Source: Candidatus Woesebacteria bacterium
Lineage (GTDB): Bacteria > Patescibacteriota > Microgenomatia > UBA1400 > MFAQ01
Assembly: GCA_035389185.1 (NCBI GenBank)
Contig: DAOORK010000001.1
Location: forward strand, 829,881-893,880
Length of the DNA: 64,000 nucleotides
Reading direction: 5' to 3'
The notes beneath the pieces are model-generated. The model saw only the letters and a program-made list of their open reading frames with translations. It was not told the DNA's origin and did not search any database. How positions within the stretch are numbered: the stretch's first letter is position 1; each line of letters starts with the position of its first letter. The position numbers were made by a program, and so were the translations under genes. Shown here one piece after another: positions 1 to 41,245 of the stretch.

Positions 1-77
1 CAATTTTTTCTCCTTGAATTTGAAGGTACGGTTTGTTTGAAGGATATTATCTCACATGTTTACGGGTGAGGTGGGGA

Positions 78-104
78 AGAAAATGCCCTCCGTGAGGAGG
101 GCTT
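78..104 (-). terminator. Rho-independent terminator of CDS 109..921
   Basis: Hairpin GCCCTCC-GTGA-GGAGGGC preceded on + by an A-tract, which is a T-tract on the minus strand. Confidence 0.55.
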
Positions 105-108
105 GAAC

Positions 109-921
109 TTAAAGACCGATTTCTGACGTGGTGACGTTGACTTTGATGTTTGGATCAAAGTTGTTGATCATTTTGACAATCAAGTCGATCTCTTCCTGGG
201 TGGCAGCGTGAGGGTAAACATCTACCCTGGGATTTTTTTCACTGATGCCCCAATCGGGAGTGTAGATGACTAAGAGTCTCTTGGTTCCCTTGGTATTCCG
301 ATAGATATCGAGACGAGCGCAACGGGCATCATCTTGGCTACCGATGATGATCCAAGAACGAGTGGTATCTTTTTCCGAAAGATACTTTTTGAGTTTGGTG
401 AGGTCGATGGGGAACTTTTTTGATTCTTTGGCAATCAGGTGAGAGATTTGAATGAAGGCGGTATCTCTGACACTGATACCGGTTTGGGGACTAGTGTAGA
501 CATTGAACCAGTCTTCAAGAGTACCGATTTTGGTCATCTTTGATAATCCAGCGGTAGTGACGACGGTTTTGCGACAGAGGTCGATAATCTTACTAACCTG
601 ATCAAAGCTTTTGGCTACTTCGATAGCGATGAGACACATATCCTCGAATGCATGAGGTGAACGATCTTTGATGATGGGGAGGAGGACGAGATATTCGTCA
701 ATGTTTTTGTCTTCACTGGCCTGCTTGCACATCATTTCGTAGGCTCTTTGTTGGGCCTCGTATCTGGCATTTTCATCAAGAAATTTTTCTTTGTATTTGA
801 TGAAATTGGGGGATAGATTTTCAGATTGATTGGGGAGAGCGATTTGAAGCTTTTCACAGATAGCCGAAGCGAGGGCCCTACTGTCGTGGCAGAAATAGAG
901 AACTAGATGATAGTGATCCAT
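109..921 (-). CDS. Hypothetical protein, paralog A of a three-gene 'IGTLEDW' family
   Basis: 270-aa ORF. The N-terminus (MDHYHLVLYFCHD...CEKLQIALP...SPNF) and the IGTLEDWFNVY motif are shared with CDS 1003..1917 and 2004..2540. It has its own promoter-leader cassette (GGGGTATAAT-N13-ACCTTAAAGGAG) and its own terminator. Confidence 0.8.
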   Translation of the reverse strand: MDHYHLVLYFCHDSRALASAICEKLQIALPNQSENLSPNFIKYKEKFLDENARYEAQQRAYEMMCKQASEDKNIDEYLVLLPIIKDRSPHAFEDMCLIAIEVAKSFDQVSKIIDLCRKTVVTTAGLSKMTKIGTLEDWFNVYTSPQTGISVRDTAFIQISHLIAKESKKFPIDLTKLKKYLSEKDTTRSWIIIGSQDDARCARLDIYRNTKGTKRLLVIYTPDWGISEKNPRVDVYPHAATQEEIDLIVKMINNFDPNIKVNVTTSEIGL

Positions 922-968
922 AGTTTTCTCCTTTAAGGTGCGATTTGTGGCTATTATACCCCAAAAAG

Positions 969-995
969 CAAAAAACCGCCCTGGATGGGGCGGTT
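969..995 (-). terminator. Rho-independent terminator (CCGCCC-TGGATG-GGGCGG plus T-tract on the minus strand); identical copy at 2603..2628
   Basis: Perfect 6-bp GC stem followed by TTTTTT on the minus strand, between the stop of gene 1003..1917 and the promoter of gene 109..921. Confidence 0.6.
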
Positions 996-1002
996 GAAGT
1001 AT

Positions 1003-1917
1003 TTAGAATGGATGACTTTGGAGATCCCTTTCCTTGAGGGTAAAAAGACAGTTGTTGGGGACGTCGATCGAATGATAGTTTTCTTTGATAGTTTTGACCA
1101 AGGAAATGACAATGTTGGAAAACATATCTTCGGCAACAATGGTAAGGCCAAAACAAGTGAATCTATCGTCGTTGGTTTCGAAAATCATGGCGACAGGTTT
1201 GTCGTTGTCTTTGGTACTGACACGAATGAAATGATGATGGTCATTTACTTTGACGTCGAGTTTCCACTTGGGGCAGATGGTTACTGTGAGAAGATAGGCG
1301 ATTCTTTCGAGATAGGATTTAATCTCCGAGGAGATTTTGGTGATGATGTTTTTCTCGATAAGGGTGATGATTTGCCTTTTGGCGAACTTGATGAAATCAT
1401 ACAGCTCAATATTGTTGAGCAAATCACTCTCGTTTATTAGCATGTCGTACCAATCTTTGAGAGTACCGATAGAGACAAGTACGTCAAGTGATTGACTATC
1501 AAGATTACCGTTGTACGGATGCGATCTTAGTACCGCGATATAGAACTTTTCTTGGAAAGTGACGGCTTTTTTGAATGCCCGTTCATATAGCTGAAATCTC
1601 TTGGTAAGATCATATATATGTGGGGCAAGAACGAGACATTCATCAATAGAGCTGGCAATTCTGAACATTTTACTGCAGACACCTTTGCCGATATTATCTT
1701 TTTTGTTGAGCTCTTCAAGCTGGGTTTTTAGCTCAAGAAACTTGGCCGAGAAGATAGGGGTTCTGGGTTCGACTTTTTTGATGTTACTGAGTGTAAGAAG
1801 CTGATTTATCAACTCTTTATATTCCGGTGAGATTCCGACATGGCGATTAGAAATACCCATGTCCTGACATACGGCTTCGATAATTTCAGCATTAAGATCC
1901 TGAATCTTGATTTTCAA
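1003..1917 (-). CDS. Hypothetical protein, paralog B of the IGTLEDW family (TTG start)
   Basis: 304-aa ORF with the IGTLKDWYDML motif and an N-terminal C..M/L..I..SP.Y block aligned to paralogs A and C. Its C-terminal domain aligns with paralog A. The RBS is AAAGGAGA 5 nt before TTG, and the upstream cassette is TGGTACAAT-N13-ACCTTAAAG. Confidence 0.75.
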   Translation of the reverse strand: MKIKIQDLNAEIIEAVCQDMGISNRHVGISPEYKELINQLLTLSNIKKVEPRTPIFSAKFLELKTQLEELNKKDNIGKGVCSKMFRIASSIDECLVLAPHIYDLTKRFQLYERAFKKAVTFQEKFYIAVLRSHPYNGNLDSQSLDVLVSIGTLKDWYDMLINESDLLNNIELYDFIKFAKRQIITLIEKNIITKISSEIKSYLERIAYLLTVTICPKWKLDVKVNDHHHFIRVSTKDNDKPVAMIFETNDDRFTCFGLTIVAEDMFSNIVISLVKTIKENYHSIDVPNNCLFTLKERDLQSHPF

Positions 1918-1972
1918 ATTGGTCTCCTTTGAACTTTAAGGTGCGTTTGGGGGATATTGTACCACTTAGGCA

Positions 1973-1998
1973 TAAAAAACCCTCCGAGTTGGAGGGTT
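1973..1998 (-). terminator. Rho-independent terminator of CDS 2004..2540
   Basis: CCCTCC-GAGTT-GGAGGG hairpin followed by TTTTTTAT on the minus strand. Confidence 0.55.
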
Positions 1999-2003
1999 TG
2001 AGT

Positions 2004-2540
2004 TTATTGAACGGATTTGGCTGACTTTTTGATTTCTTCGGCGATGAGACGAGTAATTTGTTCCAAGGCAAGATTGATCATTTCCTTGTCATTTAATTCG
2101 TCAAAATAGATATTGAGCCAGTTTTCCAAGGTACCGATAGCGATCATTTTGTTTTTGATGGTGGTTAACAAAATCTGTTTTTGGACGTTTTCGGAGCGAT
2201 GATTGGTGGCGTAATAATTGATACGTTCGAGCTTAAGAAATGAATCAGCACATTCTACAGCCTTGTTGAAGATTTCTGGAACTTTATCCTGAATGGAAGA
2301 TGGAGAAAGATAACAGAATGTGACGAGAAACTCCCAGTCGTAATAATTGGTGGCTGATTGGTACAGCAGTAGAAGGAGGGGGGAAGTATTCGTACCTTTT
2401 TCTTCATTATCAATGATTTCTTGAAATTTGGGTGAAAAACGACTAGTTTGGGAAGCAGCAATTTTAAGCTTATGGCAGACTTCGTTGATAAGTCTGTCAT
2501 TGTAGCGACAAAGAAGACGAACACGATCGTATTTGTCCAT
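2004..2540 (-). CDS. Hypothetical protein, paralog C of the IGTLEDW family; truncated, lacks the C-terminal domain
   Basis: The start is moved to the ATG at 2540 (MDKYDRVRLLCRYNDRLINEVCHKLKIAASQ...SPKF) with the RBS AAAGGAGTCATT upstream. The N-terminus aligns with paralog A, and the protein ends just after the IGTLENWLNIYFD motif. Confidence 0.7.
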   Translation of the reverse strand: MDKYDRVRLLCRYNDRLINEVCHKLKIAASQTSRFSPKFQEIIDNEEKGTNTSPLLLLLYQSATNYYDWEFLVTFCYLSPSSIQDKVPEIFNKAVECADSFLKLERINYYATNHRSENVQKQILLTTIKNKMIAIGTLENWLNIYFDELNDKEMINLALEQITRLIAEEIKKSAKSVQ

Positions 2541-2602
2541 AATGACTCCTTTGGAGAGAATTAAAGTACAGGAGGGATTATACCCTATATTCATTAAAAT
2601 GC

Positions 2603-2628
2603 AAAAAACCGCCCTGGATGGGGCGGTT
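2603..2628 (-). terminator. Rho-independent terminator of CDS 2636..2953
   Basis: Same CCGCCC-TGGATG-GGGCGG hairpin as 969..995, followed by a T-tract on the minus strand. Confidence 0.55.
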
Positions 2629-2635
2629 GGGTTGA

Positions 2636-2953
2636 TTATGAGAGATAAACAGAAAGGTCAGTTTCTCGATTAAGATAATATTCAAGGAGATGTTTATAAA
2701 TATCACATCCTTGTGTTCGATTATATCCTTCGTCGTAGCTTACGAGGAGACATTGGTTTGCATCGTCTACTGTAACTGAAGCAAACGGTTCTGTTGAATC
2801 CAAAACAGCAATACGAATGGTGATGACAAGCCTGTTATCGACAAATTCTTTGGTGACGACCCAGTTTCGGTCGGCCCTTTTAAGGATGTCGATAATTTTG
2901 ATCTGATCGAGATTTGGTTCTGACCGAGTGTTGGTTGGCTTTTGACTTTCCAT
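2636..2953 (-). CDS. Small hypothetical protein (106 aa), co-transcribed downstream of CDS 2964..3566
   Basis: The internal ATG at 2953 is preferred because AAGGAG lies 6 nt upstream. It sits 10 nt after the stop of the upstream gene. No recognisable motif. Confidence 0.6.
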   Translation of the reverse strand: MESQKPTNTRSEPNLDQIKIIDILKRADRNWVVTKEFVDNRLVITIRIAVLDSTEPFASVTVDDANQCLLVSYDEGYNRTQGCDIYKHLLEYYLNRETDLSVYLS

Positions 2954-2963
2954 ATCAAGCTCC

Positions 2964-3566
2964 TTATTCGTAGAAGGGGAAAGCTTTGGGGCAAGTTTCA
3001 CAGCAAAGTGGGCACTCGGTGAGAGTGATACAGCATTTTTGGAACTGCTTCACGGATTGAGTGATCTTTTTTAGCCGATCGATGACTGTGTTCGCGTAGG
3101 GCGATGAAACGGTTGGCGCAAAAACAGTGATTCTTGCTGGCTCAGTGCGAATAAGACAGGTGAACTTTGGTTTGCCGGGAGGCGGTGTTTCGATAAGGAC
3201 TAGCCGGAGACGCCCTTGGCAGGTTGTCTGATTTACAATACCAACCACCCATTCTTGAGGTAGATGATCAGAAAGAGAAGCTCTGAGCTTTGTAAGACTA
3301 CAAGTTTCCAGAGTGTGTCTGATAATGCTCCCGATCCAGTTCTTAGTCTTTTTGGGAACATAATAGCGATAAAAAGCATCTACTTTTGTATCGGATCGGA
3401 TAAGCAGATGGGCGATCTCGGCAAAGAAAAGACCTCGGCGATAGATTCTGATTGAGCCATCGTAGTCGACGTAGAGCTTGGGTGCGAACTTGGAAAAGCG
3501 TAAAGCTAACTCATCGCAAAGAATCTCGTCTATTCGGCGATTGGCAGGAAAAGGTGTTTGAATCAC
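2964..3566 (-). CDS. Hypothetical Cys-rich protein with a C-terminal CC-x5-C-x2-CC-x2-C cluster (possible zinc ribbon); GTG start
   Basis: 200-aa ORF. The RBS AAAAGGAGG precedes GTG, and the upstream cassette is AGGGTATAAT-N13-ACCTTAAAAGGAGG, the same as on the paralog array. Confidence 0.7.
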   Translation of the reverse strand: MIQTPFPANRRIDEILCDELALRFSKFAPKLYVDYDGSIRIYRRGLFFAEIAHLLIRSDTKVDAFYRYYVPKKTKNWIGSIIRHTLETCSLTKLRASLSDHLPQEWVVGIVNQTTCQGRLRLVLIETPPPGKPKFTCLIRTEPARITVFAPTVSSPYANTVIDRLKKITQSVKQFQKCCITLTECPLCCETCPKAFPFYE

Positions 3567-3628
3567 AGGAAACCTCCTTTTAAGGTGCGTTTTGGAGATA
3601 TTATACCCTATAAAGCAAGAGATAAAGA

Positions 3629-4897
3629 CTATTTATCTTGGAATAGAAAGTCGTTGGAAAGACTTGTGGAGTAGGTTTTTTGGTTGAACTGGATGGTTTG
3701 GGGAGAGGAAATCAGGCCATGTTGTTTGAGGATAGTGAGAGAGTATTTGACTTGAGAAACAGGAAGAGTATAAGAAAGATTGAGTTGGGACTGATTTTGG
3801 GCGGGAGTTGTAAGCCAAAAGCCAATCTCGGTAAAATTGTATTTTTGGGTGATGACGGGGCTGAGAGTGCCGGAGCTGGAAGCGAGATGAATGTTTTGAG
3901 CGGATTGGGGAATGTAAAAACGGAGATAGGTGATGTAGTCACCGCCATAGTGGAAAGGAGGATTGGGGTTGGATTCCGGAGAAGTATTGAAGAGATTGAT
4001 ACTGACATGGTGGGATATTTGATTATTGACGATCGAAATGGTGTGAGTTGTGTTGCGGGTGATGTAGGCGTTGGCTTTGTTGGCCCCAAGATTGGTTTCG
4101 ACTAGAAGATAAGTGTCGGGAGTGTTTGATTCCAGTTTGCCGGCGAAGTTTTGACTTTCGAGGAGATTTTGAAAGTCTTTGTTGGTGGAGTTTATGAGGA
4201 TGTTTTGGTTTGTTAGATCTTGATAAACAATTTGGACAAGGTGCATTTTTTTGGAGACGGGCAGGGATTGGATTTTTTTGACGAGAGCCGAGCCGACGGC
4301 AGTAAGGGCGTCTTTTTTTTGGGTGGAACCGGGGAAAAAATTGACTTCGGCTTTGCCTTGAAGAAATAAATAGAGATTGTCCGGGGTGAGGGTGGCTTGG
4401 TACTCGGGGACTTCGATACTGCCGACGGTGTTGAGAATTTTTTTGATAGTGGTGAGGTTAAGTAGAACAAGATTGTCGGGATTGATTTCACCTCCTTTTT
4501 CGAAAAACCAACGGAGAGTGATGGCGCAGGTGGGAAAGTCCGGTTCCCAATCGGCGTTGGATAACTGCCAAGTGCCATGCTGAAAGGCCTCTTGAATCGG
4601 GACGGGTGGAGTGACGAAGCCTCCTAGCTGACCGTCGGGAACATAGATATCTTGGAAGGAGACATCGAAACTGGGATAGTTGAGGATAATTTTGGCGTAC
4701 GAACCGACAAAGCCGCCATTGGCGCGCATCTCGGTGTCGTTGCCTAGAAGAACGAGGTAGGAGGTGGGCTGATTTTGACCTAAAAGATAGGGGGCAAAGG
4801 GCAAGAAGGGTTTGACGAAAAGAACCAGAGGAATAAGGCTAATAACGAATAGACTTAAAATGATAGACAAAACAGCATAGAGGCGGGAGTGCTTCAC
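3629..4897 (-). CDS. Membrane-anchored DUF4012-like protein
   Basis: 422-aa ORF with an N-terminal basic region plus a TM helix. The motif LLVLLGNDTEMRANGGFVGSYAKI resembles the conserved ELR(P/A)xGGFxGSYA block of DUF4012 proteins. The family name is from memory. Confidence 0.6.
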   Translation of the reverse strand: MKHSRLYAVLSIILSLFVISLIPLVLFVKPFLPFAPYLLGQNQPTSYLVLLGNDTEMRANGGFVGSYAKIILNYPSFDVSFQDIYVPDGQLGGFVTPPVPIQEAFQHGTWQLSNADWEPDFPTCAITLRWFFEKGGEINPDNLVLLNLTTIKKILNTVGSIEVPEYQATLTPDNLYLFLQGKAEVNFFPGSTQKKDALTAVGSALVKKIQSLPVSKKMHLVQIVYQDLTNQNILINSTNKDFQNLLESQNFAGKLESNTPDTYLLVETNLGANKANAYITRNTTHTISIVNNQISHHVSINLFNTSPESNPNPPFHYGGDYITYLRFYIPQSAQNIHLASSSGTLSPVITQKYNFTEIGFWLTTPAQNQSQLNLSYTLPVSQVKYSLTILKQHGLISSPQTIQFNQKTYSTSLSNDFLFQDK

Positions 4898-7082: not shown

Positions 7083-7128
7083 ACCGTTTGTAATTTGACA
7101 TTCAATTTCTTTTTCAAAAGGAGTGAAA

Positions 7129-8013
7129 ATGAATAAAAAGTTGTTTCTGATTGTTGCTGTTCTAGTCGTCCTGACATTGGCTTTGTCTACCTGTGAGCTT
7201 CCTGATTCCAACCAGCCCCAAGGAATAACCTTGGAAACCCTTCTTGGTGAAGTAATCGGTTATTCTCACCCCGTCAAATTTTCTATGGTGAGCTATAACG
7301 GCGATAACCACACAATGGAGGTACTGGTTGATGGAAACCCATACACTTTGGTCGAGGGCAAGAACGAAGGTGTTTGGGATACTGATCAAGTGGATTTTGC
7401 TTGGGATGATTATGGCTTGACGAAATTTGGTCAGCTGCGTGATCTTTTTTCCGAGGAAACTGTCCGATCGATAGAGGAAAAGGGGAACGACTTCTGGGCA
7501 TTTTCTGATGGTGGTGCTTATAACCGGACGGTGGTTTTGGTGCCAGTTGATGTCATGCCTAAGATGATCTCGGATGTCTCAACATGGGACATGACCGAAG
7601 CTGTGATATCTGTTTGGAGCGTCTCGCCTTTTCCAGCTAGTCGGATATACGAAAACGTGACAACCAATGAAGTAGTTTTTGGTGACTATCTTTATGTTAT
7701 GACCTACGACGATCAACACAATGCGCGACCACTTCTTTCTAATGGTTTTCTCTGGGGATATGTCCATGTTGAGAAAGAAGACTCTCACGGGGATTACACA
7801 GTATATCTTAGTCAGTCAGAACCAGATTTCTCCAAGTATCCGGAAGCTGTTGAGCTGATGCAGCTGGCTTACCCGGAAAGTGCAAATCCGATTACGGTTG
7901 ATTCGTATTCTGGTCTGGGTCAGGTGTGTGATGCCTTGAGTTCAGCAATATATTACGATCGAGCCAACCGAGAAGAAGTGAAACAAGTTTGCGGAGTGTA
8001 TTACATTCCGTAG
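7129..8013 (+). CDS. Lipoprotein, paralog 1 of a four-gene tandem family
   Basis: Signal peptide plus lipobox (LALSTC). AGGAG lies 6 nt before the ATG at 7129. The motifs MPKMISDVSTWDMT, ENVTTNEVVF and a C-terminal QVCGVYYIP are shared with paralog 2. Confidence 0.8.
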   Translation: MNKKLFLIVAVLVVLTLALSTCELPDSNQPQGITLETLLGEVIGYSHPVKFSMVSYNGDNHTMEVLVDGNPYTLVEGKNEGVWDTDQVDFAWDDYGLTKFGQLRDLFSEETVRSIEEKGNDFWAFSDGGAYNRTVVLVPVDVMPKMISDVSTWDMTEAVISVWSVSPFPASRIYENVTTNEVVFGDYLYVMTYDDQHNARPLLSNGFLWGYVHVEKEDSHGDYTVYLSQSEPDFSKYPEAVELMQLAYPESANPITVDSYSGLGQVCDALSSAIYYDRANREEVKQVCGVYYIP

Positions 8014-8015
8014 AA

Positions 8016-8044
8016 GTGAAGTACGTCCCCCGTGTAAAAGCGGG
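8016..8044 (+). terminator. Rho-independent terminator (CCCCCG-TGTAAAAG-CGGGGG plus T-tract)
   Basis: GC stem followed by TTTTTTG. Members of the same hairpin family follow each lipoprotein gene and occur again at 48978. Confidence 0.6.
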
Positions 8045-8066
8045 GGATTTTTTGTATCTAGTTATG

Positions 8067-8095
8067 GCCTATATGATTGACTTTTGGGGTTATTG
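8067..8095 (+). promoter_or_regulatory. Promoter of lipoprotein paralog 2 (TTGACT-17-TAGAAT)
   Basis: Same cassette as 7054..7082. Confidence 0.5.
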
Positions 8096-8148
8096 GGAGT
8101 AGAATACAGCTATTCGTAAATTGAAAATTTAATCTATTGGAGGAGCTA

Positions 8149-9042
8149 ATGAAACGTGTATGGAATTTAGTTTTCGTTGTTTTGGTGGTTGCCTTGACTC
8201 TAACCGCCTGTACGCCAATGACCAATCGTACACAAAAGAATCTACACTCTAAAGGACAAACACTTCAGGAGTATTCCGAGGCTGTTGGTTTTCACTTTGC
8301 CTCGATGCAGGTGCTGTCTTTTGATGAGAGTGAACAAACTCTGCAGACGGTAATTGATGGTCAGCCGGTTACTTTGAGGTCGTATGGTACCCAGGATTGC
8401 GAATACTACTATCCTTGTAATAATCTTGAGGTTGTTTATATTGGCGATAATCACTTTGTTGAACATATGGGTATGATTGATTTTTATAAAGAGTCCTTGT
8501 TCACTGACGAATTCGTCATTGAAACCAAAGGAGTGGACTGGGTGGTGATGGATTTAGGAGATTATCCTGTCTATGGTCTGGTTATGGTGCCAGCTGATAT
8601 CATGCCCGAGGTGGTTGATGATATTTCGGAATGGAATGACACCAGTACAACATTGTATATCTGGCGATATTCCATGGGTCCGGATAGCATAATTCAAAAT
8701 ATGACAACGGGAGAAATTTTTTACGGAGAAGTGTCTCTGTCAACTTTTGACGATCTCGGGCGTATGGATGTGATCCATCCTGGAACTACCGCGTGGGGTT
8801 ATCTCCATGTTGAAACATATGATGGAGCGAATGGTGAGCCGGAGACACAGTTGTATCTGAGTCAATCGGCTCCTGATCTGCAGACAATGCAAAAGGCTGT
8901 AGATTATTACGTTTCAGAGTATGGATCAACTGCAAACTATGGCCCCGGCTTTGTTTGCTTCTTGTTGCAGTACTATGCCAGGTCTGACTACGACACCGCA
9001 GTTGCCAAACAGTATTGTGGTGTGTATTACGTTGGAAAATAA
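8149..9042 (+). CDS. Lipoprotein, paralog 2
   Basis: GGAGG lies 5 nt before the ATG at 8149, and there is a lipobox LTAC. The motifs MPEVVDDISEWNDT, QNMTTGEIFYG, WGYLHVE and a C-terminal QYCGVYYVGK are conserved. Confidence 0.8.
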   Translation: MKRVWNLVFVVLVVALTLTACTPMTNRTQKNLHSKGQTLQEYSEAVGFHFASMQVLSFDESEQTLQTVIDGQPVTLRSYGTQDCEYYYPCNNLEVVYIGDNHFVEHMGMIDFYKESLFTDEFVIETKGVDWVVMDLGDYPVYGLVMVPADIMPEVVDDISEWNDTSTTLYIWRYSMGPDSIIQNMTTGEIFYGEVSLSTFDDLGRMDVIHPGTTAWGYLHVETYDGANGEPETQLYLSQSAPDLQTMQKAVDYYVSEYGSTANYGPGFVCFLLQYYARSDYDTAVAKQYCGVYYVGK

Positions 9043-9047
9043 TAAAT

Positions 9048-9075
9048 ATCCCCTGGGAAACCGGGGGATTTTTTG
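9048..9075 (+). terminator. Rho-independent terminator (CCCCTGGGAAACCGGGGG plus T-tract)
   Basis: Hairpin plus TTTTTTG. Confidence 0.6.
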
Positions 9076-9107
9076 TATCTAGTTATGTCCTATATGTTTG
9101 ACTTTTG

Positions 9108-9126
9108 GGACTACTTGGAGTAGAAT
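9108..9126 (+). promoter_or_regulatory. Promoter of lipoprotein paralog 3 (TTGACT ... TAGAAT)
   Basis: TTGACTTTTGGGACTACTTGGAGTAGAAT. Confidence 0.45.
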
Positions 9127-9168
9127 ACGGCTATTCGCAAGTTGAAAATTTAATCTATTGGAGGAAAA

Positions 9169-9849
9169 GTGAAGAAAATTTTTGTTGTCGTATTTGCTTT
9201 GATTGTAGCCGTGATGGTCATGACCGCTTGTACCAACAAGACTTCTCAGGAAAACGTCGTTGATATTCCTCAAAAAAATATCATTAGTATGTTTTCAGCT
9301 CAAGCCGTTCTGTATTATCCTGAAGGACGCAACGCCTGGTTCATGGAGTATAACAAGGATTATTTCGAAGTTATAGTTGACGGGGAGCTTATTCACCTGA
9401 TCGATCCTGAAGAAAATTCGTATGTGATCTTGGGTAAGAAAGCGCCTGATGGAATGATTCAGTTTGATTCTCCGATACCACTGCTAGATTTTAGAGATGT
9501 GACTGTCAGAGATGGTATATCTGGGCATCGAGTGTTTTATAGCGGATATGATACCCTGCACGAAGAGAATATGACTTTGGGTATGGTGATAATTGATGGT
9601 GAAGACATGCCAGATTTCGTTTCTGCTCGTTTGTGGGACGCTACTGTAACCAAACTTTGTGTCTGGCAGTACCCTCAAGAATCCTTGGTTATACAGAATC
9701 TTGTTACCGATGAAGTCACCCACGTCTATGATGAAGTGGATATACTAGCCGGTGATGGCACAGTACTTGATCGAGTTGAACAAGGGGAATGTGTCTCAGG
9801 GCTTGTGATTGCTGAAGATGATCGTAAGATCAGTATTGTTGTAGAATAA
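9169..9849 (+). CDS. Lipoprotein, paralog 3 (GTG start)
   Basis: GGAGG RBS and a lipobox MTAC. The motifs MPDFVSARLWDATVTKLCVW and QNLVTDEVT align with paralogs 1, 2 and 4. Confidence 0.75.
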   Translation: MKKIFVVVFALIVAVMVMTACTNKTSQENVVDIPQKNIISMFSAQAVLYYPEGRNAWFMEYNKDYFEVIVDGELIHLIDPEENSYVILGKKAPDGMIQFDSPIPLLDFRDVTVRDGISGHRVFYSGYDTLHEENMTLGMVIIDGEDMPDFVSARLWDATVTKLCVWQYPQESLVIQNLVTDEVTHVYDEVDILAGDGTVLDRVEQGECVSGLVIAEDDRKISIVVE

Positions 9850-9863
9850 CCTACAAGTTTGAA

Positions 9864-9890
9864 TCCCTCGGGAAACCGGGGGATTTTTTG
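9864..9890 (+). terminator. Rho-independent terminator (CCCTCGGGAAACCGGGGGA plus T-tract)
   Basis: Hairpin plus TTTTTTG. Confidence 0.6.
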
Positions 9891-9912
9891 TATCTAGTTA
9901 TGGCCTATATGA

Positions 9913-9941
9913 TTGACTTTTGGGGTGAAATCAGGTATACT
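9913..9941 (+). promoter_or_regulatory. Promoter of lipoprotein paralog 4 (TTGACT-17-TATACT)
   Basis: TTGACT at 9913 and TATACT at 9936. Confidence 0.45.
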
Positions 9942-9989
9942 ATGGCTGTTCGCAGAAATTTAAAATTCTATTGATTCAAGGAGAAAATT

Positions 9990-10688
9990 GTGAAAAAGAG
10001 GTTGGTTGTGTTGTCTGTAATGATCTTGGTTTGTCTGGCCTTATTCGCTTGCAGAAACACGAATGTAATATCAGATGATCAGCCGTTTCCCGAAATGAGC
10101 GTGTATGACATGTTTCAGAAGTATGGCAGAGCGGACGATCTGAACAAAATTCAGTTCGTGAGCGAACCATACAATGAGGCAAATAACTCAGTTCGGGTGT
10201 ATTTTAACGGCCATCCGGTGACCATGAAAGTCAGTCGTGATGCGAGTTATATCGACATGGGCACAGGGATGAGAAGTGATATGGGGAACAGAACATTGGA
10301 TGCAAGAAGTTATACCCTGGGTTTTGAAAATCAACCCGAAGGTACGACGTACTATGTGTTCCTAGGATACGCGGAATATTCGTCCTTCATTTTCATCAAC
10401 TCCAGGGACAATTTGCTGGTTATCGACACGAAGAAGATGCCGGACATTGTGAACCCCAATACTTGGGATGGTACCTGCGCCGAGATTGAGATCTGGACTC
10501 TTCCTGAAAACATCAATATCGTTGAGAATCTGTCTACTAATGAAGTAGTAATTGATGTCAACGTTTTCACCCACAACTCTTCGAGTAATGATGAAGATGA
10601 CGACATGATGGCTCTTGGGAGCATTAACATTGGAAAAATCGATTACGAGAGGGCAGAAGATCGCATTACGATCTACGTACGTAAATAA
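9990..10688 (+). CDS. Lipoprotein, paralog 4 (GTG start)
   Basis: AAGGAG RBS and a lipobox LFAC. The motifs MPDIVNPNTWDGT and ENLSTNEVV are conserved. Confidence 0.75.
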   Translation: MKKRLVVLSVMILVCLALFACRNTNVISDDQPFPEMSVYDMFQKYGRADDLNKIQFVSEPYNEANNSVRVYFNGHPVTMKVSRDASYIDMGTGMRSDMGNRTLDARSYTLGFENQPEGTTYYVFLGYAEYSSFIFINSRDNLLVIDTKKMPDIVNPNTWDGTCAEIEIWTLPENINIVENLSTNEVVIDVNVFTHNSSSNDEDDDMMALGSINIGKIDYERAEDRITIYVRK

Positions 10689-12573: not shown

Positions 12574-15500
12574 TTAATTGATTTTTACACCTTCCATTTT
12601 TAGACTATCGAAATACAGTGAGCCTGTGCTGGTGTTGGAAGGAGAAGTTGTACACCAGCTAGAGTAGAGAGTGTTGGCTCCGTCAAAGCGGAGAGCACGA
12701 ATAAGGTAGATATAGGTATTGTTTGAAGAAATGGGAGAGTCGACGTACTGGGCGGTGTCGGCGGAAAGTGTCTCTACTAGAGTAGCAAGGTCTCCGTTAA
12801 CAGAACTCCAAATTTGGTAATTATCTTCGTTGGTAGCGTTTTCTGTCCAGTTAATAGTTATGCTGGAGTTATCGGAGGCCTTAACGGTAGTACAAGAAGT
12901 AGGGGCCGAAGGATTTCCTTTGGTGGTGAAGGTTTGGGGCGAAGATTGGGCAGTACTCCAAGTGTTGGTGCCAGCCGGGTCGATGGCATAGGCACGCCAG
13001 TAATAGAGGGTGCCGGGGACGAGGTTGGTTTGAACAGTGTAGGTGGCTTGCGTTCCGGAAGTGTAGGCCGTGGATGACTCGGCATTTTGACTGGTCCAGC
13101 CTGTTTGGGAACTGGTTTGATCAAAGGTTTGACAGTTGACAGTCATAAAGACATTAGTACAAAGATGAATTTTGTAGCGGAGATAATCACTATCGACATC
13201 GGTGGTAGTAATTTGGAAAATAGTTGTCAAAGTGATTTCGGTGGCTGAATTGGCAGGAGCGTCTTGAGTGACAACGTTAGGAGCCTGATTTGTGGTGAAG
13301 GAATATGGTGTTGTTTGGGTGGAACTCCAAGTATTTGATCCGGCCGGATCGATAGCATAGGATTTCCAGTAATAAACGGTGCCAAGATTCAAGGCAGTTT
13401 GTATGGTATAGACTCCCTGAACACCTGATGCGTAGGAGACAGCCGACCAACCGGTGGCGGATACTGTTTGGTCGTATGTTTGACAGTTTGTGGTCATGCC
13501 GGGGTCGGTGCAGATTTTGATTTTGTATTTTATATCGTCACCATCGTTGTCTGTGGCAGTGGTTTTGATGGTGGCGATTAAGGGAACACTGGTCGCAGTA
13601 TCACTGGGGAAATCTAAAGTAGGTATGTTGGGAATCTCGCTGGTGGTAAAGGAGTAGGGTGTTGTTTGAGTAGACGACCAGTTATTGGAACCGGCCGGAT
13701 CGATGGCATATGACCTCCAGTAATAGTCTGTATGGGGATCAAGGGGAGTCTGAAGAGTGTAGACTCCTTGAACACCGGATGCATAAGAGGCGGCGGTCCA
13801 ACCGGTAGCGGAGACCGTTTGATCAAAAGTTTTACAACCGATACTCATAGCTGCATCAGTACAAATAATGATTTTGTATTTGAGAGAATCGGATTCAGTG
13901 TCTGTGGCGGTGGTTTTGAGAACCGCGAGTCGGGTGACATGTGTTGCTGTATCTGCAGGAAAATCGAGAGTAGGGGTATTGGGAGGAACGTTTAAGGTGA
14001 CGCCCCAGTCGTAAAGGGATGGAGCACCAGCGGAGTCGGAGAGATTAGACTTAACATAAAGTATGGGATAAGTCGTAGGATTAAGACCGATCAAACTGAC
14101 GGGAGACGAAGTGAATCCAGTAGAATTACCGGGTAATGCCGAATCGGGGATAATGGTAGGGACGCCGGTTACGTCGTAATAAATTTGATAAGTAATATCG
14201 GTACCAGCCTCATCTGTAAACTCCAATGCGTTCCAGACGGCATTGGTATCAATATTCGCGATGGTGATAGGGGTAGAAGTAATGGTTCCCGTGGCAAATG
14301 GTGTGGCGGTGAAGTTATCAATATAAAAAGTATTGTCAGCGTCAGCATTGACGATGGTAATAATGATTTGGTCGATGGCGTCTTTGTTGGCGTTTGCGAC
14401 CCCGGAAATATCCCAAGTGACAGTTTGAAATGCATTCGCGGACAAAATATTTGGAGTGATTTCGGAAGTAGTACCACCTGAGTCATGGATACTTATCTTG
14501 ATATTACTTCCGGTTCTGGTAGATCTTAAATCGAAACTGATTGAAGAAGAGCCAGAAAGATTTATAGCTGATGAAGGGGTACTAATAAGGTTTTGGTTTA
14601 GTGAGGCAGAAGCAGAGGCGATTCCTTTGAGTGAATAGCTGCCTTGAGTTTTGATCGTGGATTCGGAAAAACTTTGAAGAGCATTTCTAACATATCTAAC
14701 AACGACGATACCTGAACCACCCTGGAAATTGGCACTTGTCTGGCTACCACCTCCACCCATACCGGTATTTGCAGTGCCAGCTCCATTTGGTGAAAGTGAA
14801 CTGCTAGTACCACCAACACTGTAGGTAACAGAGGTTCCGGATACTGAGTAATTAAGGCCAGCACCACCCGTTCCGCTGCCAGCTGATGTACCGACACCTC
14901 CAGCACCTCCACCACCCCCAGCGTACCATCCGGAACCGGCTCCTCCTGCGTTTCCCTGTCCAGTTGTGCCACTACCCCCAGCGAGCCCAGTACCGTTTGC
15001 ACTACCACCTCCACCAGAACCCCCATCTTTTCCGGTTCCACCCGGTGATCCACCTCCACCTCCGCCTATGGCGGATAGGGTATTGAAAACTGAATTACCA
15101 CCGTTGGCACTTGCTGTTTGACCTCCATTACCGACAGTGATGGAGTATCCCGTGGCTGTCACGGCGTGAGATGAGTCGTATATTAGACCTCCGCCACCTC
15201 CACCTCCTGAGTTTGTACCGACACCTCCAGCACCTCCTCCAGCGACAACGAGAGCTTCAACATTTCCAACAAATGCAGGAGTAAAAGTACCGTCAGTAGT
15301 AAAGGAATGAACTTTGTAAACACCGACATTGGAAATCGTACCTCCCGTTCCGGTGATTTCGCTAGCAAGATATGCAGATTGAGCTGAAGAATTTGATGAA
15401 TATTCCATAAGATCAACATTGGATGGTGTAACAGAAACGGTAACGGCATCGGTTACAGCCGAGGAAGTGGCGTTGCCGGTATAAGTGTCGGTCGCAAATT

Positions 15501-18453
15501 GATCGGCCATGGTTTCGAACCATCGGTTGGTGGTAAGGGACGTATCAATAGTAAAAGAGCGGGTTGTTGACCATCCAGAGTAAAGATTGGACCCAGACGG
15601 ATCGATGGCTCTGGTGCGATAGTAGTATGTGGTTCCGTTGGACAAGGCACTTTGAAAGGTATAGGAAACGGTGTCTTCGGAAGCAAAAGGGGAGGTGTCT
15701 GCAGGGTTGGTGATGTCGGCAAAACCAGCATCGGTGTCGGAAGATTTGGTGGTAGCACCAGTAAAGGCGGAAGTAGTGTCCCAGCTTATTTGATAAACGA
15801 TGTCATCACTTTCTGGGTCGGTGGCGGAGAACTGAATTTGAGGGGTGGTATTTGCCGTTTTAAGTTTGTCGTGAAGGTAGCTTGAAGAAATCGTGGGTGC
15901 ATTTGGTGGGGAATTGGCGACAATATCGTCAAAATAAAAGGTTGCCCCGGAAGTATCGCTTGTAAACTGAAAGGCAAATTGAGTGACCGCGTCTCTGTCT
16001 GCGGACGAGATACCGGAGATAGTCCAGGTTTTCTTCTCCCAGGTATCGGCAGAGTTTATAGTAATATCGTAGGTTTGTTCATCACTTGCGATTTCCCCAA
16101 ATTGGAATCTGGCGAAGCTCCCAGTATGATCTGACCTGACCCAGAATGTAAGATTGTTGTATGAAGAGATGTTGGTAGCTGTTTTGGTAAGAGTAACGGT
16201 ATCGTCAAGTGAGCCATATATACCGATAAAATTATCAATATAGAAGGTGTTATCAGCATCGGCATTCACAACAGTGATGATAATTTGATCAATGGCATCT
16301 TTATCGGCAGTACTGACTCCGGAGAGATCGATTGTGGCAGTCTGAAAAGTATTGGCAGAAGTAATATTGGGAGTGATTTCGGTTGTTGTGCCACCTGAGT
16401 CATGAAGCCCTACTTTTATGTTGCTACCGGTTCTGGTGGAACGAATGTCGAAGGTGACAGTATTAGAATTTGACAAATCAGCTGGGGAACCGATGGTACG
16501 AGTGAGTGTTTGATTCAGAGAACTGGTAGCTTGAGCAAATCCTTTAAGTGAATATGAACCTTGCGTTTTAATACTAGATTCAGAATATGACTGGAGAGTG
16601 TTATATGGGTATCTGACGATGATAATACCCGAACCACCTGCGGCACCGATTCCATATGAAGCATTATATCCAGCACCGCCTCCACCACCACTGCCGCGGT
16701 TGTCGGCTCCGGCAGTTGGAACCGAGCTGGCTGCACCACCTCCACCGTTTCCACCTCCACATTGTCCAGTTCCTGGTTCTCCATATAAGTTTCTTTGGGC
16801 GCCTCCACCACCACCACCGGCATAACAGACTGATGAACCACTTATGCTATAGGTGACACCTGTTCCTCCATTTGTACCGTGTGCTGTTGCATATGTATTT
16901 ACACCAGCACTTCCCATTCCACCTCCACCAGCACCACCATAATAACTTGTGACGGAATTTCCTCCATTGTATCCTTGGCTACCGGTACCACCTGTGTGAA
17001 CCTGTGATCCAGCACCACCTCCACAACCACCAGCCGCACCGTTTCCATTTCTTCCGCCAGCGCCTCCACCAGTGCCAGTGATTGAAGAAAAGACTGAGTT
17101 ATCGCCGTTGGTTGCCACAGCACCACCTCCACCAACAGTTGCTGTGATATTGCCTGCAGATATGGCAAAGGAGGAGTTATAGACGGCACCTCCAGCTCCA
17201 CCACCACCACCGGCATAGTTTATAGCGTAATATGAGTTTCCACCTCCGCCTCCGCCAACTACCAGCACTTGAACATTACCCGAGTTGGTAACTGCAAGGG
17301 TTCCGCTTGTTGTAAAGGTATGGATAATGTCTGTTCCTGAATAGGTAATGGTGCCACCGGTAGCGGAAAGGGCGTTGGTTGTGTAGGCTGTTTGTGCAGA
17401 TCCGTTAGTAGAGTATTCCATGAGGTCGATAGCGATACTACTTTGGGAGGTTGTCTTGACTTTGACTGAACTTGAGCCCTCTTCTTTAATAGTGGTTTCT
17501 TGAGAAACAACTGTATTGGTAGGATCAGAACTGACCCAGTCAGTAGACGTATCGGCGTTATCAATGACGAGGTCGATGACAACTGGATAGACACGGTTCT
17601 TGTCATTTAGCCAGGCAACACCTTCCGGGGTAAGGACTTTTGAAATTGTCAGTTGATTGCCTTTGGTTTGAACCTCATATTTGATACCGTTTGATGTCCT
17701 TGTTTTGTCGTGAAGTTCATAAAGAACCGGCGCGGGAATACTAAAGACGGTATGGTTTTTGGTATCAGTAAAAGTAAGGCTACCATCGGCGTTTTTTTGG
17801 TATTTTTGGTTGGTTTTAGCAATTTGGTCGATTTTTGTAACGAGATTGGCGGTGGATTTATCGTTGATAACAAATTCTTCAAGTAATCTCGAAGGAGAGA
17901 TGGTGTAGCGGAGATCCATTTGGGGAAAGATATTGGGGTAGGTGAGAGTGCTACCGTTAGCTACTGGCTGGTTGAAGGTGTTGAGCTCGCCAAAAGACTG
18001 GGTTTTTAGAGTGTAAAAAGAAATTTTCCCCAGATTGTTGGAAAAGACGATACTGCCTGAGTCGGTCGGTTTGTTTTTGAAATGGGTGGAAAACTCGTTG
18101 GTGACATTTTTGTAAGAGTAGGTACCAATGTCTTTGACAATGACGGTGTTGGGGGGAAAAGTAACAGGCTTGGTGATGGTGCGATTTAAGAGGAGGAATA
18201 GGATGGTTGATAAAATGGCACAAAACGTGAAAGAAACTAGTATTAATAGTACCACTTTAAGAAAATGAGGCTGGAAATGTCGTTTGAAATGGCTATTTAT
18301 TGGAAAGGTATTTCCAGAAGCCGTTTTAGGGGCATTGTAGAGACGAGCGTTTTTGAGGGTAGCCGGAATAAATTTGAGTCTTTTGGAAATAAGAGAGACC
18401 ACCGGAAAAGTGGAGACGCGCGAGAGTTTGATGGTGTGTCTCTTTTTAAACAC
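12574..18453 (-). CDS. Giant membrane-anchored surface protein (1959 aa) with Gly-rich domains and FN3-like repeats
   Basis: Single uninterrupted ORF with a GTG start and an N-terminal TM helix. It contains two ~400-aa internally duplicated units with (G)n-rich cores, three tandem ~107-aa FN3-like repeats and a terminal FN3-like domain. It lies directly upstream of the pilin gene on the same strand. Confidence 0.85.
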   Translation of the reverse strand: MFKKRHTIKLSRVSTFPVVSLISKRLKFIPATLKNARLYNAPKTASGNTFPINSHFKRHFQPHFLKVVLLILVSFTFCAILSTILFLLLNRTITKPVTFPPNTVIVKDIGTYSYKNVTNEFSTHFKNKPTDSGSIVFSNNLGKISFYTLKTQSFGELNTFNQPVANGSTLTYPNIFPQMDLRYTISPSRLLEEFVINDKSTANLVTKIDQIAKTNQKYQKNADGSLTFTDTKNHTVFSIPAPVLYELHDKTRTSNGIKYEVQTKGNQLTISKVLTPEGVAWLNDKNRVYPVVIDLVIDNADTSTDWVSSDPTNTVVSQETTIKEEGSSSVKVKTTSQSSIAIDLMEYSTNGSAQTAYTTNALSATGGTITYSGTDIIHTFTTSGTLAVTNSGNVQVLVVGGGGGGNSYYAINYAGGGGGAGGAVYNSSFAISAGNITATVGGGGAVATNGDNSVFSSITGTGGGAGGRNGNGAAGGCGGGAGSQVHTGGTGSQGYNGGNSVTSYYGGAGGGGMGSAGVNTYATAHGTNGGTGVTYSISGSSVCYAGGGGGGAQRNLYGEPGTGQCGGGNGGGGAASSVPTAGADNRGSGGGGGAGYNASYGIGAAGGSGIIIVRYPYNTLQSYSESSIKTQGSYSLKGFAQATSSLNQTLTRTIGSPADLSNSNTVTFDIRSTRTGSNIKVGLHDSGGTTTEITPNITSANTFQTATIDLSGVSTADKDAIDQIIITVVNADADNTFYIDNFIGIYGSLDDTVTLTKTATNISSYNNLTFWVRSDHTGSFARFQFGEIASDEQTYDITINSADTWEKKTWTISGISSADRDAVTQFAFQFTSDTSGATFYFDDIVANSPPNAPTISSSYLHDKLKTANTTPQIQFSATDPESDDIVYQISWDTTSAFTGATTKSSDTDAGFADITNPADTSPFASEDTVSYTFQSALSNGTTYYYRTRAIDPSGSNLYSGWSTTRSFTIDTSLTTNRWFETMADQFATDTYTGNATSSAVTDAVTVSVTPSNVDLMEYSSNSSAQSAYLASEITGTGGTISNVGVYKVHSFTTDGTFTPAFVGNVEALVVAGGGAGGVGTNSGGGGGGGLIYDSSHAVTATGYSITVGNGGQTASANGGNSVFNTLSAIGGGGGGSPGGTGKDGGSGGGGSANGTGLAGGSGTTGQGNAGGAGSGWYAGGGGGAGGVGTSAGSGTGGAGLNYSVSGTSVTYSVGGTSSSLSPNGAGTANTGMGGGGSQTSANFQGGSGIVVVRYVRNALQSFSESTIKTQGSYSLKGIASASASLNQNLISTPSSAINLSGSSSISFDLRSTRTGSNIKISIHDSGGTTSEITPNILSANAFQTVTWDISGVANANKDAIDQIIITIVNADADNTFYIDNFTATPFATGTITSTPITIANIDTNAVWNALEFTDEAGTDITYQIYYDVTGVPTIIPDSALPGNSTGFTSSPVSLIGLNPTTYPILYVKSNLSDSAGAPSLYDWGVTLNVPPNTPTLDFPADTATHVTRLAVLKTTATDTESDSLKYKIIICTDAAMSIGCKTFDQTVSATGWTAASYASGVQGVYTLQTPLDPHTDYYWRSYAIDPAGSNNWSSTQTTPYSFTTSEIPNIPTLDFPSDTATSVPLIATIKTTATDNDGDDIKYKIKICTDPGMTTNCQTYDQTVSATGWSAVSYASGVQGVYTIQTALNLGTVYYWKSYAIDPAGSNTWSSTQTTPYSFTTNQAPNVVTQDAPANSATEITLTTIFQITTTDVDSDYLRYKIHLCTNVFMTVNCQTFDQTSSQTGWTSQNAESSTAYTSGTQATYTVQTNLVPGTLYYWRAYAIDPAGTNTWSTAQSSPQTFTTKGNPSAPTSCTTVKASDNSSITINWTENATNEDNYQIWSSVNGDLATLVETLSADTAQYVDSPISSNNTYIYLIRALRFDGANTLYSSWCTTSPSNTSTGSLYFDSLKMEGVKIN
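12890..13980. repeat. Three tandem ~360-nt repeats encoding FN3-like modules inside the giant gene 12574..18453
   Basis: Protein repeats PNTPTLDFPADTAT...SFTT, PNIPTLDFPSDTAT...SFTT and PNVVTQDAPANSAT...TFTT. The DNA segments ~12960-13140, ~13320-13500 and ~13680-13860 are visibly similar. Confidence 0.6.
14320..15410. repeat. Internal duplication unit 2 of the giant gene (paralogous to 16235..17425)
   Basis: Protein DLMEYSSNSSAQSAY...GSGIVVVRYVRNALQSFSESTIKTQGSYSLKG...ADADNTFYIDNF parallels unit 1. The DNA is ~80% similar by eye. Confidence 0.55.
16235..17425. repeat. Internal duplication unit 1 of the giant gene
   Basis: Protein DLMEYSTNGSAQTAY...GSGIIIVRYPYNTLQSYSESSIKTQGSYSLKG...ADADNTFYIDNF. 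Confidence 0.55.
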
Positions 18454-40322: not shown

Positions 40323-40396
40323 TTTTAACCTCCTCTGTTAAAGTTCAAACTTGGAGTTGATAATAACATAGGAATAGGGTATTTACGAAATTGTTG

Positions 40397-40469
40397 TGGA
40401 CCTGAGGGGAATCGAACCCCTTACCTCCGCAATGCGAATGCGGCGCTCTACCAGGTGAGCTACAGGCCC
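40397..40469 (-). tRNA. tRNA-Ala (anticodon CGC)
   Basis: Cloverleaf by eye: acceptor GGGCCUG/CAGGUCC with G3:U70, D-arm GCUCACCUGGUAGAGC, anticodon stem-loop CCGCA-UUCGCAU-UGCGG, T-arm GGGGUUCGAUUCCCC. CCA is not encoded. Confidence 0.8.
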
Positions 40470-41243: not shown

Positions 41244-41245
41244 AA

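Follow-up and report, generated by a model that had tools for sequence, protein, structure and literature searches.

Self-contained gene cassettes of two orphan protein families at a variable chromosomal slot in Candidatus Woesebacteria

Patescibacteria have tiny genomes rich in genes without known relatives, and the gain, regulation and exchange of their accessory genes are poorly understood. In a Candidatus Woesebacteria genome, a 64-kb stretch of contig DAOORK010000001.1 (the window, that is, the whole stretch of DNA that was analysed) begins with a row of paralogous orphan genes behind closely similar signals, which raises the question of what kind of locus this is and what its proteins are for. 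The first part can be answered with high confidence: the locus is an array of self-contained cassettes encoding two orphan protein families, here called A and B, and it is not a piece of phage. The evidence comes from the common build of the cassettes, from the fixed chromosomal position they occupy in related genomes and from one cassette shared between two species. The second part permits more tentative answers, which are weighed below against their alternatives.

The array covers window positions 1–3612 on the minus strand, in expression units of mostly one gene each, with intergenic gaps of 81–107 nucleotides (nt). Its 270-amino-acid (aa) product is identical to PLI45_04735, annotated as a hypothetical protein of a Candidatus Woesebacteria bacterium metagenome-assembled genome. 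Fetched loci are labelled L0xx and proteins met in the searches P00xx; the first 10.9 kb of the window equal ENA contig L002 exactly and are 1 base off JGI contig L001. Listed in the direction of transcription, the features are:

3629–4897, minus strand: DUF4012 membrane-protein gene, the conserved upstream border of the variable slot
3567–3612, minus strand: promoter–leader of the 200/105-aa operon (repeat D1 in the self-comparison), with −10 box TATAAT at 3600–3605, leader box CGCACCTTAAA at 3579–3589 and ribosome-binding site AGGAGG at 3573–3578
2964–3566, minus strand: 200-aa gene, GTG start, with a B1-type domain, an 'LPQEW' B-type domain and a Cys-rich tail (CCITLTECPLCCETCP)
2636–2953, minus strand: 105-aa gene, placed in family B, subgroup B2; second in the operon, with its own ribosome-binding site and without a promoter
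2596–2629, minus strand: terminator after the 105-aa gene, stem-loop CCGCCCCATCCAGGGCGG plus T-tract, hairpin at 2607–2628
2541–2589, minus strand: promoter–leader of the 178-aa gene, TATAAT at 2577–2582, variant leader TGTACTTTAAT, ribosome-binding site AAGGAG
2004–2540, minus strand: 178-aa gene (P0005), family A, predicted full-length alpha-solenoid domain, motif IGTLENW
1977–1999, minus strand: terminator of the 178-aa gene, CCCTCCAACTCGGAGGG plus T-tract
971–1973, minus strand: whole 304-aa cassette, with TACAAT at 1956–1961, leader box at 1935–1945, open reading frame (ORF) at 1003–1917 with a TTG start, and terminator at 974–995
1003–1917, minus strand: 304-aa gene, family A plus a C-terminal domain
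922–971, minus strand: promoter–leader of the 270-aa gene, TATAAT at 953–958, leader box at 932–942, ribosome-binding site AAGGAG
109–921, minus strand: 270-aa gene, predicted family-A alpha-solenoid at residues 1–168 with IGTLEDW, and a C-terminal four-strand/helix domain at ~185–265
85–102, minus strand: terminator of the 270-aa gene, GCCCTCCTCACGGAGGGC
1–51, minus strand: start of a fourth family-A paralog, promoter TGAGATAAT with −10 box at 46–51, leader variant CGTACCTTCAA at 20–30, TTG start at 3–1

A longer start of the 178-aa gene would give a 196-aa ORF that swallows its own −10 box. The fourth paralog, for which contig sequence was fetched beyond the window, runs past the left edge and encodes 198 aa with the motif TGTFEDW and the tail EYHVSP. 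The NYN-domain gene that forms the other border of the slot lies ~0.6 kb past the same edge.

Each cassette consists of a sigma-70-type, −10-driven promoter, a leader, a ribosome-binding site, one ORF (two in the 200/105-aa unit) and a GC-rich hairpin terminator. An initial annotation of this DNA had assigned near-identical individual promoters and leaders to every unit. This is correct for the promoter GGTATAAT, which occurs three times in the 64-kb window and only upstream of the 200-, 178- and 270-aa genes, and for the leader box CGCACCTTAAA, which is exact upstream of the 200-, 304- and 270-aa genes, whereas the 304-aa promoter (TGGTACAAT) and the leader box before the 178-aa gene are variants; the 198-aa gene carries a variant of both parts. 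Compared unit against unit, the 40-nt promoter–leader repeat is 85% identical between the 270- and 200-aa units and 68% identical in another comparison, although the protein encoded behind it in the 200-aa unit is no paralog of family A. The 200-aa gene does head a two-gene operon under the same promoter cassette, as had been proposed, with a second product of 105 rather than 106 residues. Two of the GC-hairpin terminators had been called identical, which applies to the 18-nt stem-loop they share; over 34 nt (2596–2629 against 963–996, repeat D3) they agree at 33 positions (97%). The T-tract of a preceding terminator falls at the −35 place of the next promoter, e.g. TTTGCA-17-TATAAT, in which the −35-like TTTGCA comes from the T-tract of the terminator at 2596–2629. 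The leader itself is G-poor and ~25–35 nt long, with the box CGYACYTTAA followed by a strong AAGGAGG ribosome-binding site.

We scanned 447 kb (the window and related loci) with a composite pattern of −10 box, 4–18 nt, G[CT][AT]C[CT]TT[ATC]A, at most 25 nt and [AG]GGAG. The scan returned 10 matches, against 0.1 in shuffled sequences. Nine of them lie directly upstream of slot genes (family A and subgroups B1, B2, B3 and BC) in five genomes, and the remaining one lies in L007, before an orphan gene that adjoins the array. A riboswitch, or a structure sequestering the ribosome-binding site, was considered for the leader and discarded: no stable or shared fold was seen, the leaders fold no better than shuffled sequences (z-scores −1.6 to +1.0), and an Rfam scan of the window, in which only five tRNAs reach the gathering score, gave no match for them. 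Because the leaders have neither a stable fold nor an Rfam match, the promoter–leader appears to act at the sequence level; it could serve as an operator placed shortly after the transcription start, or as a leader favouring translation or stability. Conservation is higher in this element than in the proteins behind it, and unrelated proteins have it in common, which argues for common regulation; the cassettes are presumably regulated jointly or, at the least, expressed with equal strength.

A further gene of this build lies far from the array. At 45425–45905 on the minus strand, a 147-aa orphan gene (45425–45868), whose product has no Pfam match, shows the same cassette design with a looser leader copy: promoter GATATAAT, leader TCCCCCCAAAGCACCTTAAA, a ribosome-binding site, and the identical terminator CCCGGCCGCAAGCCGGG on both sides.

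The position of the array was examined with the NYN protein as an anchor, which yielded 51 further loci from GTDB genomes and JGI metagenomes; 66 loci were fetched, and architectures were called with hidden Markov models (HMMs) for A, B, NYN and DUF4012, giving ~25 syntenic loci. In every contig long enough to judge, the array sits between the DUF4012 gene and the convergent NYN-domain gene, with FkbM methyltransferase and LysM–M23 peptidase genes beyond DUF4012 and Rho beyond NYN, and this chromosomal position, from DUF4012 to NYN/Rho, is the same in more than 10 related genomes.

The content of the slot varies from 0 to 8 genes over the ~25 syntenic loci. It is empty in seven genomes (L016, L045, L047, L048, L049, L052 and L057), holds a single lipoprotein gene in L015, B-type genes only in L036, L042, L051/L053 and L054, and B together with one A gene in L009, L013 and L039; expanded mixtures occur in L004, L043, L006 (eight genes) and the source genome, and L056 carries four paralogs of another small family. 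No slot gene of any genome has a Pfam domain. Between the source genome and L004 the array proteins are 36–59% identical, with nonsynonymous divergence (dN) of 0.29–0.74, and NYN, Rho and sortase 81–86% identical, with dN of 0.09–0.13. The array genes evolve 3–8 times faster than their flanks and are under purifying selection, dN being well below synonymous divergence (dS).

Several observations on the slot and its surroundings stand beside these results. The family amplified in L056 is a third slot family of ~120–140 aa, starting 'M..I.L.L.IET...'; it is found at L056 10709–12486 (four in tandem), L006 9788–10450 and L036 11237–11653 and forms the N-terminal half of L006_220. The family that has been amplified at the DUF4012–NYN slot differs from lineage to lineage. 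A portable C-terminal tail, Y-E-E-x-L-[IV]-S-P, appears on three unrelated slot domain types, namely 198-aa-type A proteins, the 138-aa proteins of L036 and L051 and the 115-aa protein of L054, in the forms EEYHVSP, EEIHVSP, EEIYVSP, YEEVLMSP, YEEHLISP and YYEEILISP. Its carriers are L001 10919–11515, L004 3173–3769, L036 11237–11653, L051 6006–6422, L054 8479–8826, P0013 and P0014, the last sharing the tail of the 198-aa-type A proteins; the three family-A proteins within the window (270, 304 and 178 aa) are without it. The tail resembles a short docking, degradation or export tag.

Between NYN and Rho there is a Bro-N-like gene (L001 13596–14262, L016 9132–9992, L043 3613–3995), 286 aa long in L016 and apparently split into 95 + 119 aa in the source genome, with a weak PF02498 match on a 57-kb contig. 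It is unusually conserved in nucleotide sequence, at 89% against a background of ~75%, and may be either a regulator or another element that moves laterally. On the far side of Rho, before a 110-aa gene and ~6 kb past the left window edge, a stretch of ~300 nt that seems to be non-coding (L001 16994–17288) is 82–92% identical in nearly all genome pairs, against 72–78% for genes, with no Rfam match at gathering score; it may represent an undescribed structured RNA.

That whole cassettes move is indicated by the 304-aa unit. Window 971–1973 (1003 nt) is 94.4% identical to JGI contig L043, in which NYN, DUF4012, LysM–M23, FkbM and Rho show 70–78% nucleotide identity to the source genome, indicating different species. 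The dS in the 304-aa gene is 0.117, versus 1.70 for NYN and 1.19 for DUF4012, and this disparity between the cassette and its diverged flanks points to lateral exchange, as read from a single metagenomic contig (Ga0209373_10003841), for which contamination or chimerism could be an alternative source. The shared block opens with the −10 box of the 304-aa gene and closes with the T-tract of the terminator, and the sequence outside is unrelated; in L043 the cassette directly adjoins NYN and has neighbours other than those in the source genome. Since the shared block runs from promoter to terminator, the unit of gain and exchange appears to be the whole cassette. Short hairpin repeats, CCGCCTATGGCGG and CAGCCTMTGGCTG, bracket the L043 cassette and occur nowhere else in the fetched loci.

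The sequences at L043 4868–4906 and 5921–5957 are pairs of ~25-nt hairpin units (GTACTCA..CCGCCTATGGCGGAT and ..CAGCCTMTGGCTGAT), in opposite order on the two sides of the cassette and not met elsewhere in the 66 fetched loci. An exact copy of the first hairpin core lies at window 15062–15074.

What the cassettes encode was approached through the two families. The tandem paralogy proposed for family A was confirmed, with four copies in place of the three first counted, 20–32% identical to one another. The 270- and 178-aa proteins match by BLASTP at E = 4e-15 (29% identity over 182 aa), and the 304-aa protein is a divergent member (BLASTP E = 2e-3 and 4e-4; family HMM 4e-46). The motif IGTLE(D/N)W, which had been read in all three, is present in the 270- and 178-aa proteins and becomes IGTLKDW in the 304-aa protein; the N-terminal block likewise holds as a family trait, but the 304-aa protein lacks its first Cys. 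An HMMER profile search of 1.84 billion representatives gave 14 matches at E ≤ 1e-3: three queries (P0001, P0002, P0005), eight true relatives, two repeat orphans and one RCC1-type propeller. The eight relatives, of 167–268 aa, keep the N-terminal block (Y..VL..C.....L....C..L.I..P......SPEF) and the motif GT[LF]xDW. The 178-aa protein had been regarded as truncated; it spans the whole family domain and aligns end to end with relatives of 167–199 aa, and it is the 270- and 304-aa proteins that carry an added C-terminal domain.

From an 11-sequence alignment, AlphaFold2 modelled family A with a mean predicted local distance difference test score (pLDDT) of 84.7. The domain of ~170–200 aa is predicted to be an alpha-solenoid of 9–10 helices with a GT[LF]xDW hairpin, preceded by a two-helix N-terminal block with two semi-conserved Cys. 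This model supersedes a first one built from three sequences, with a pLDDT of 62 and non-specific Foldseek matches. Among 13 family members, only W138, G133, F106 and A155 are near-invariant, with S37 added in the 11-sequence alignment. Because the conserved residues are W, G, F and A, there is no sign of a catalytic site, and because such residues are structural, family A would be a binder or scaffold and not an enzyme. No A or B protein has a signal peptide or transmembrane segment.

Two apparent kinships were set aside. P0008, an RCC1-type beta-propeller of 2825 aa with 10 matched stretches, has 'SPVQIGTLxxWSKV' strands that mimic IGTLxDW; the link was dropped as a motif-level coincidence because family A is all-helical. 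The repeat orphans P0011 and P0016 are built of ~32-residue 'ELGTFxDWxxVY' repeats, and a reading of family A as three GTFxDW repeats of this type was rejected, only the IGTLxDW hairpin fitting the repeat profile.

Family B is a family of small domains, of ~90–105 residues, in which the 105-aa protein is placed by comparison with the small proteins of syntenic loci (BLASTP with L004_99, E = 2e-4). Jackhmmer joins residues 2–86 of the 200-aa protein to the ~90-aa proteins L006_97/89 and L004_94, and the second half with its Cys tail stands alone as L036_126 and L040_115 (115–126 aa). Profile–profile comparison with hhalign, on subgroup alignments of 4–7 sequences each, scored 96.9% for B2–B3 (E = 2e-10), 72.5% for B3 with BC, the subgroup of the second half of the 200-aa protein, and 61.3% for B1–B3; earlier, smaller alignments linked no B subgroups significantly. 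These comparisons lend moderate support to placing both halves of the 200-aa protein in family B. P0004, an ortholog of the 200-aa protein, is 55–57% identical to it. The zinc-ribbon character first attributed to the 200-aa protein was abandoned: its Cys tail is C-x5-C-x3-C-x2-C (only C-x3-C-x2-C in L036_126), a spacing that, read from sequence, does not give the two CxxC (or CPxC) knuckles of a zinc ribbon, and the protein has no Pfam match.

Families A and B appear to be connected. B was detected in 10 of the 11 loci that have A in the HMM survey, a B gene precedes an A gene with an 11-nt gap in L009 and L013, and the 249-aa L006_249 is an A–B2 fusion; by Rosetta-stone reasoning, this co-occurrence, adjacency and fusion suggest that A and B act together. 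B also occurs widely without A. We put cooperation between the two at an even chance, and they would probably do so by forming a complex or by binding a common partner.

The five array proteins went unmatched in Pfam, PHROGs, PADLOC and NCBIfam, and comparison with PDB profiles was likewise negative, in agreement with the initial annotation, which could place no member in a known family. In PADLOC-DB 2.0 nothing was matched at E ≤ 0.1, in PHROGs nothing below E = 0.02, and no Pfam repeat family reached E ≤ 1 in the 13 family-A members. A word-indexed search of 5.8 billion proteins returned only the array proteins themselves and one 55% ortholog of the 200-aa protein, and neither GTDB genomes nor JGI metagenomes nor IMG/VR yielded an ortholog of A or of the 200-aa protein to direct pattern searches. 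A literature search for an earlier description of tandem paralogs in Woesebacteria gave nothing relevant.

Taken together, the locus is a hypervariable slot of self-contained cassettes, which may form an exchangeable array of co-regulated, possibly immunity-like binders, an explanation that as a whole falls a little short of an even chance. Change in the array comes from tandem duplication followed by divergence, from domains being added or fused, and from whole promoter-to-terminator cassettes being gained, lost and swapped between species, the last as seen for the 304-aa cassette. The A and B proteins would bind or neutralise partners stoichiometrically, in a setting of conflict or interaction and much as in a polyimmunity locus, with each paralog directed at another partner and the paralogs presumably differing in binding specificity. 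The immunity-like role taken by itself is doubtful; the presence/absence variation and the lateral exchange are compatible with it. A bolder version, which we regard as a long shot, would make the DUF4012/NYN slot an integrase-free cassette-exchange site of candidate-phyla bacteria, an analogue of the integron in which the non-coding ends serve as regulatory input and as homology handles, e.g. after DNA uptake, and A and B an undescribed two-component immunity or defence system.

A number of results weigh against the binder explanation. In the ~25 syntenic loci, neither the slot nor its surroundings showed a gene for a toxin, a protease, secretion or defence, the toxin-domain search having covered flanks of 10 kb or less with Pfam only, and no array gene matches a recognised immunity family (SUKH, SuFu, Imm1–Imm7x, Imm-ank, HEAT). 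The array is identical in three sampled populations of the Woesebacteria species and so shows no strain-level variation. A 198-aa-type A gene has been kept beside NYN in L001, L004, L009 and L039 under purifying selection, which may speak for a stable role in the cell. In L007, four A genes were detected but no B. The placement of B1 and BC in family B comes from moderate profile scores and small alignments, and the C-terminal domains of the 270- and 304-aa proteins, tried as further members, remained unlinked to it (<3% probability). Finally, polyimmunity loci have short intergenic gaps and are presumed polycistronic (PMC3482391), unlike the array, in which a separate promoter and terminator enclose each single gene or pair.

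Of the alternatives, the one that survives best is a lineage-specific module of housekeeping type, although we consider it unlikely. The A and B proteins would then be adaptors or chaperone-like subunits, either for RNA metabolism by NYN and Rho or for envelope biogenesis by DUF4012, LysM–M23 and sortase, and the extra copies would be subfunctionalised duplicates. The synteny of DUF4012, small B genes, 198-aa-type A, NYN and Rho kept in L001, L004, L009 and L039 is consistent with such a role, as are the purifying selection on the array genes (dN << dS), their retention in a genome of ~0.9 Mb and promoters that look constitutive and strong. However, in at least seven related genomes with NYN 64–77% identical nothing fills the slot, so the A/B module is dispensable; one cassette has been laterally exchanged, the array genes outpace their flanks 3- to 8-fold, and family A amounts to about 10 clusters in the 1.84 billion representatives.

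The order of B and A genes suggests another possibility, toxin–antitoxin-like modules in which the small B in front would resemble an antitoxin and the larger A would follow it, which appears improbable. Toxin–antitoxin modules often duplicate and move between genomes, and the present modules are accessory, laterally exchanged, multi-copy and fast evolving; in L009 and L013, B (~100 aa) is followed by A (~195 aa) after the 11-nt gap. Against this, A has no conserved polar or catalytic residues and is a predicted alpha-solenoid, Pfam and PADLOC searches gave neither a toxin nor an antitoxin domain, and the A genes of the array stand alone with their own promoters and terminators, three of four lacking an adjacent B. 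The wide occurrence of B without A and the exchanged 304-aa cassette, which holds A alone, argue in the same direction.

Tandem paralog arrays of helical-repeat proteins are typical of symbiont effectors, and the array could diversify with a host, its products being host- or neighbour-directed effectors exported by an unrecognised route with the Y-E-E-x-L-[IV]-S-P tail as a tag for export or docking. The recurrence of these eight C-terminal residues on three unrelated slot domain types and the lipoproteins that the slot collects in other genomes would fit this proposal, to which we give only a small chance: signal peptides and transmembrane segments are missing from A and B, the tail is missing from the three A proteins in the window, and there are no secretion genes nearby.

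A phage- or mobile-element-derived accessory or anti-defence array, the origin favoured by the initial annotation for its orphan genes with strong individual promoters, and for which one could add the laterally exchanged cassette and the hairpin repeats flanking it in L043, is highly improbable, since the proteins have no sequence or fold likeness to phage or viral proteins and no PADLOC match, the borders have no integrase, transposase or tRNA, the G+C content is native and the position is shared by more than 10 genomes. Tblastn of the 270-aa protein against 50,697 phage records, two IMG/VR scans with the 198-aa and 200-aa alignments and a BFVD viral fold search (E ≤ 1e-3) gave no match. The array has a G+C content of 42%, the same as the rest of the window, its closest tRNA is 36 kb off, and no integrase or transposase is found among the neighbouring genes at its borders. 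Prophage hallmarks (integrase, structural genes, a tRNA or att border, phage similarity, odd composition) were not found.

Elsewhere in the window, two giant minus-strand ORFs (12574–18453 and 18622–27873), encoding 1959 and 3083 aa, were considered as toxin partners and rejected, as they have no toxin domain and lie 9–24 kb from the array. The 1959-aa product has a Gly_rich_2 domain, and the 3083-aa product only an N-terminal phage-integrase SAM-like domain (PF02899, E = 3e-12), which is odd at the head of ~3000 residues. Four consecutive plus-strand ORFs of 296, 301, 226 and 232 aa at 7123–10688 have no Pfam match on record; self-BLAST shows 54-nt repeats of 98% identity at ~8037–8090 and ~9873–9926, and the stretch may hold a second array of tandem orphan genes. 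Within 1.4 kb (40396–41792) there are three tRNA-Ala genes, two with a CGC anticodon on opposite strands and one with GGC. The plus-strand GC skew, (G−C)/(G+C), is positive in almost all 2-kb bins, mostly +0.1 to +0.36 with one bin at −0.01, and the cumulative curve rises almost unbroken regardless of gene orientation, the array genes being on the C-rich strand. The window seems to lie within one replichore with unusually strong strand asymmetry.

The locus offers a concrete, testable case of a fixed slot, standardised cassettes, two co-travelling orphan families and a cassette that has moved between species. If the proteins are immunity-like or host-interaction binders, the slot would open a way to study conflict between cells in organisms for which solitary culture is not yet possible; if they are neither, it is still a clean case of lineage-specific birth-and-death gene evolution, and its promoter–leader is a candidate strong, portable expression element for the phylum.

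Compared with known systems, the array is closest in outline to the polyimmunity loci of polymorphic toxins, which are same-orientation arrays of distant, non-enzymatic binder paralogs, including HEAT/ankyrin and small alpha+beta proteins, with mixed families, two-domain fusions, content that varies between genomes and often no toxin gene (PMC3482391). Shared with these loci are the four family-A genes (20–32% identity) and family B, all on the minus strand, the variation of slot gene number and type between related genomes (0–8), the fusion of two domains in one polypeptide and proteins of predicted helical-repeat type. The array differs from them in its Patescibacteria host, for which extended polyimmunity loci have not been reported, and in its pattern of variation, which occurs between species and not among the three sampled populations. 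Membership in the polyimmunity class is not established, because no described Imm family is matched, the genes are not polycistronic, no recombinase is adjacent and no toxin partner was found.

The esaG/tsaI strings of type VII secretion system (T7SS) immunity genes are described as non-identical genes that evolve by recombination between tandem paralogs (PMC9484751). They resemble the array in having diverged tandem paralogs at a fixed site, repeats as a recombination substrate and variable copy number; they differ in belonging to unrelated families beside a known secretion system and toxin, and the repeats of the array are the non-coding promoter–leader and terminator sequences. The predicted likeness of family A to TPR, Sel1 and HEAT proteins is at the level of fold only. 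Unlike TPR, HEAT and HAT repeat proteins, including designed ones, family A has no Pfam repeat match and a single GTFxDW-like hairpin.

Integron arrays offer a parallel in organisation: in both, single-gene cassettes of like orientation are lined up in a variable series at a fixed chromosomal site and can be exchanged between genomes. Integron cassettes are mostly promoterless, whereas the cassettes of the array have their own promoter and terminator and no integrase gene lies beside them; no attC-like site was recognised at the array, where no formal attC model was run, and the cassette ends are ordinary terminators. In comparison with all these systems, the locus is a fast-evolving accessory array of a familiar kind, made distinctive by its slot-specific cassettes, its two families with almost no relatives and the swap of a cassette between species.

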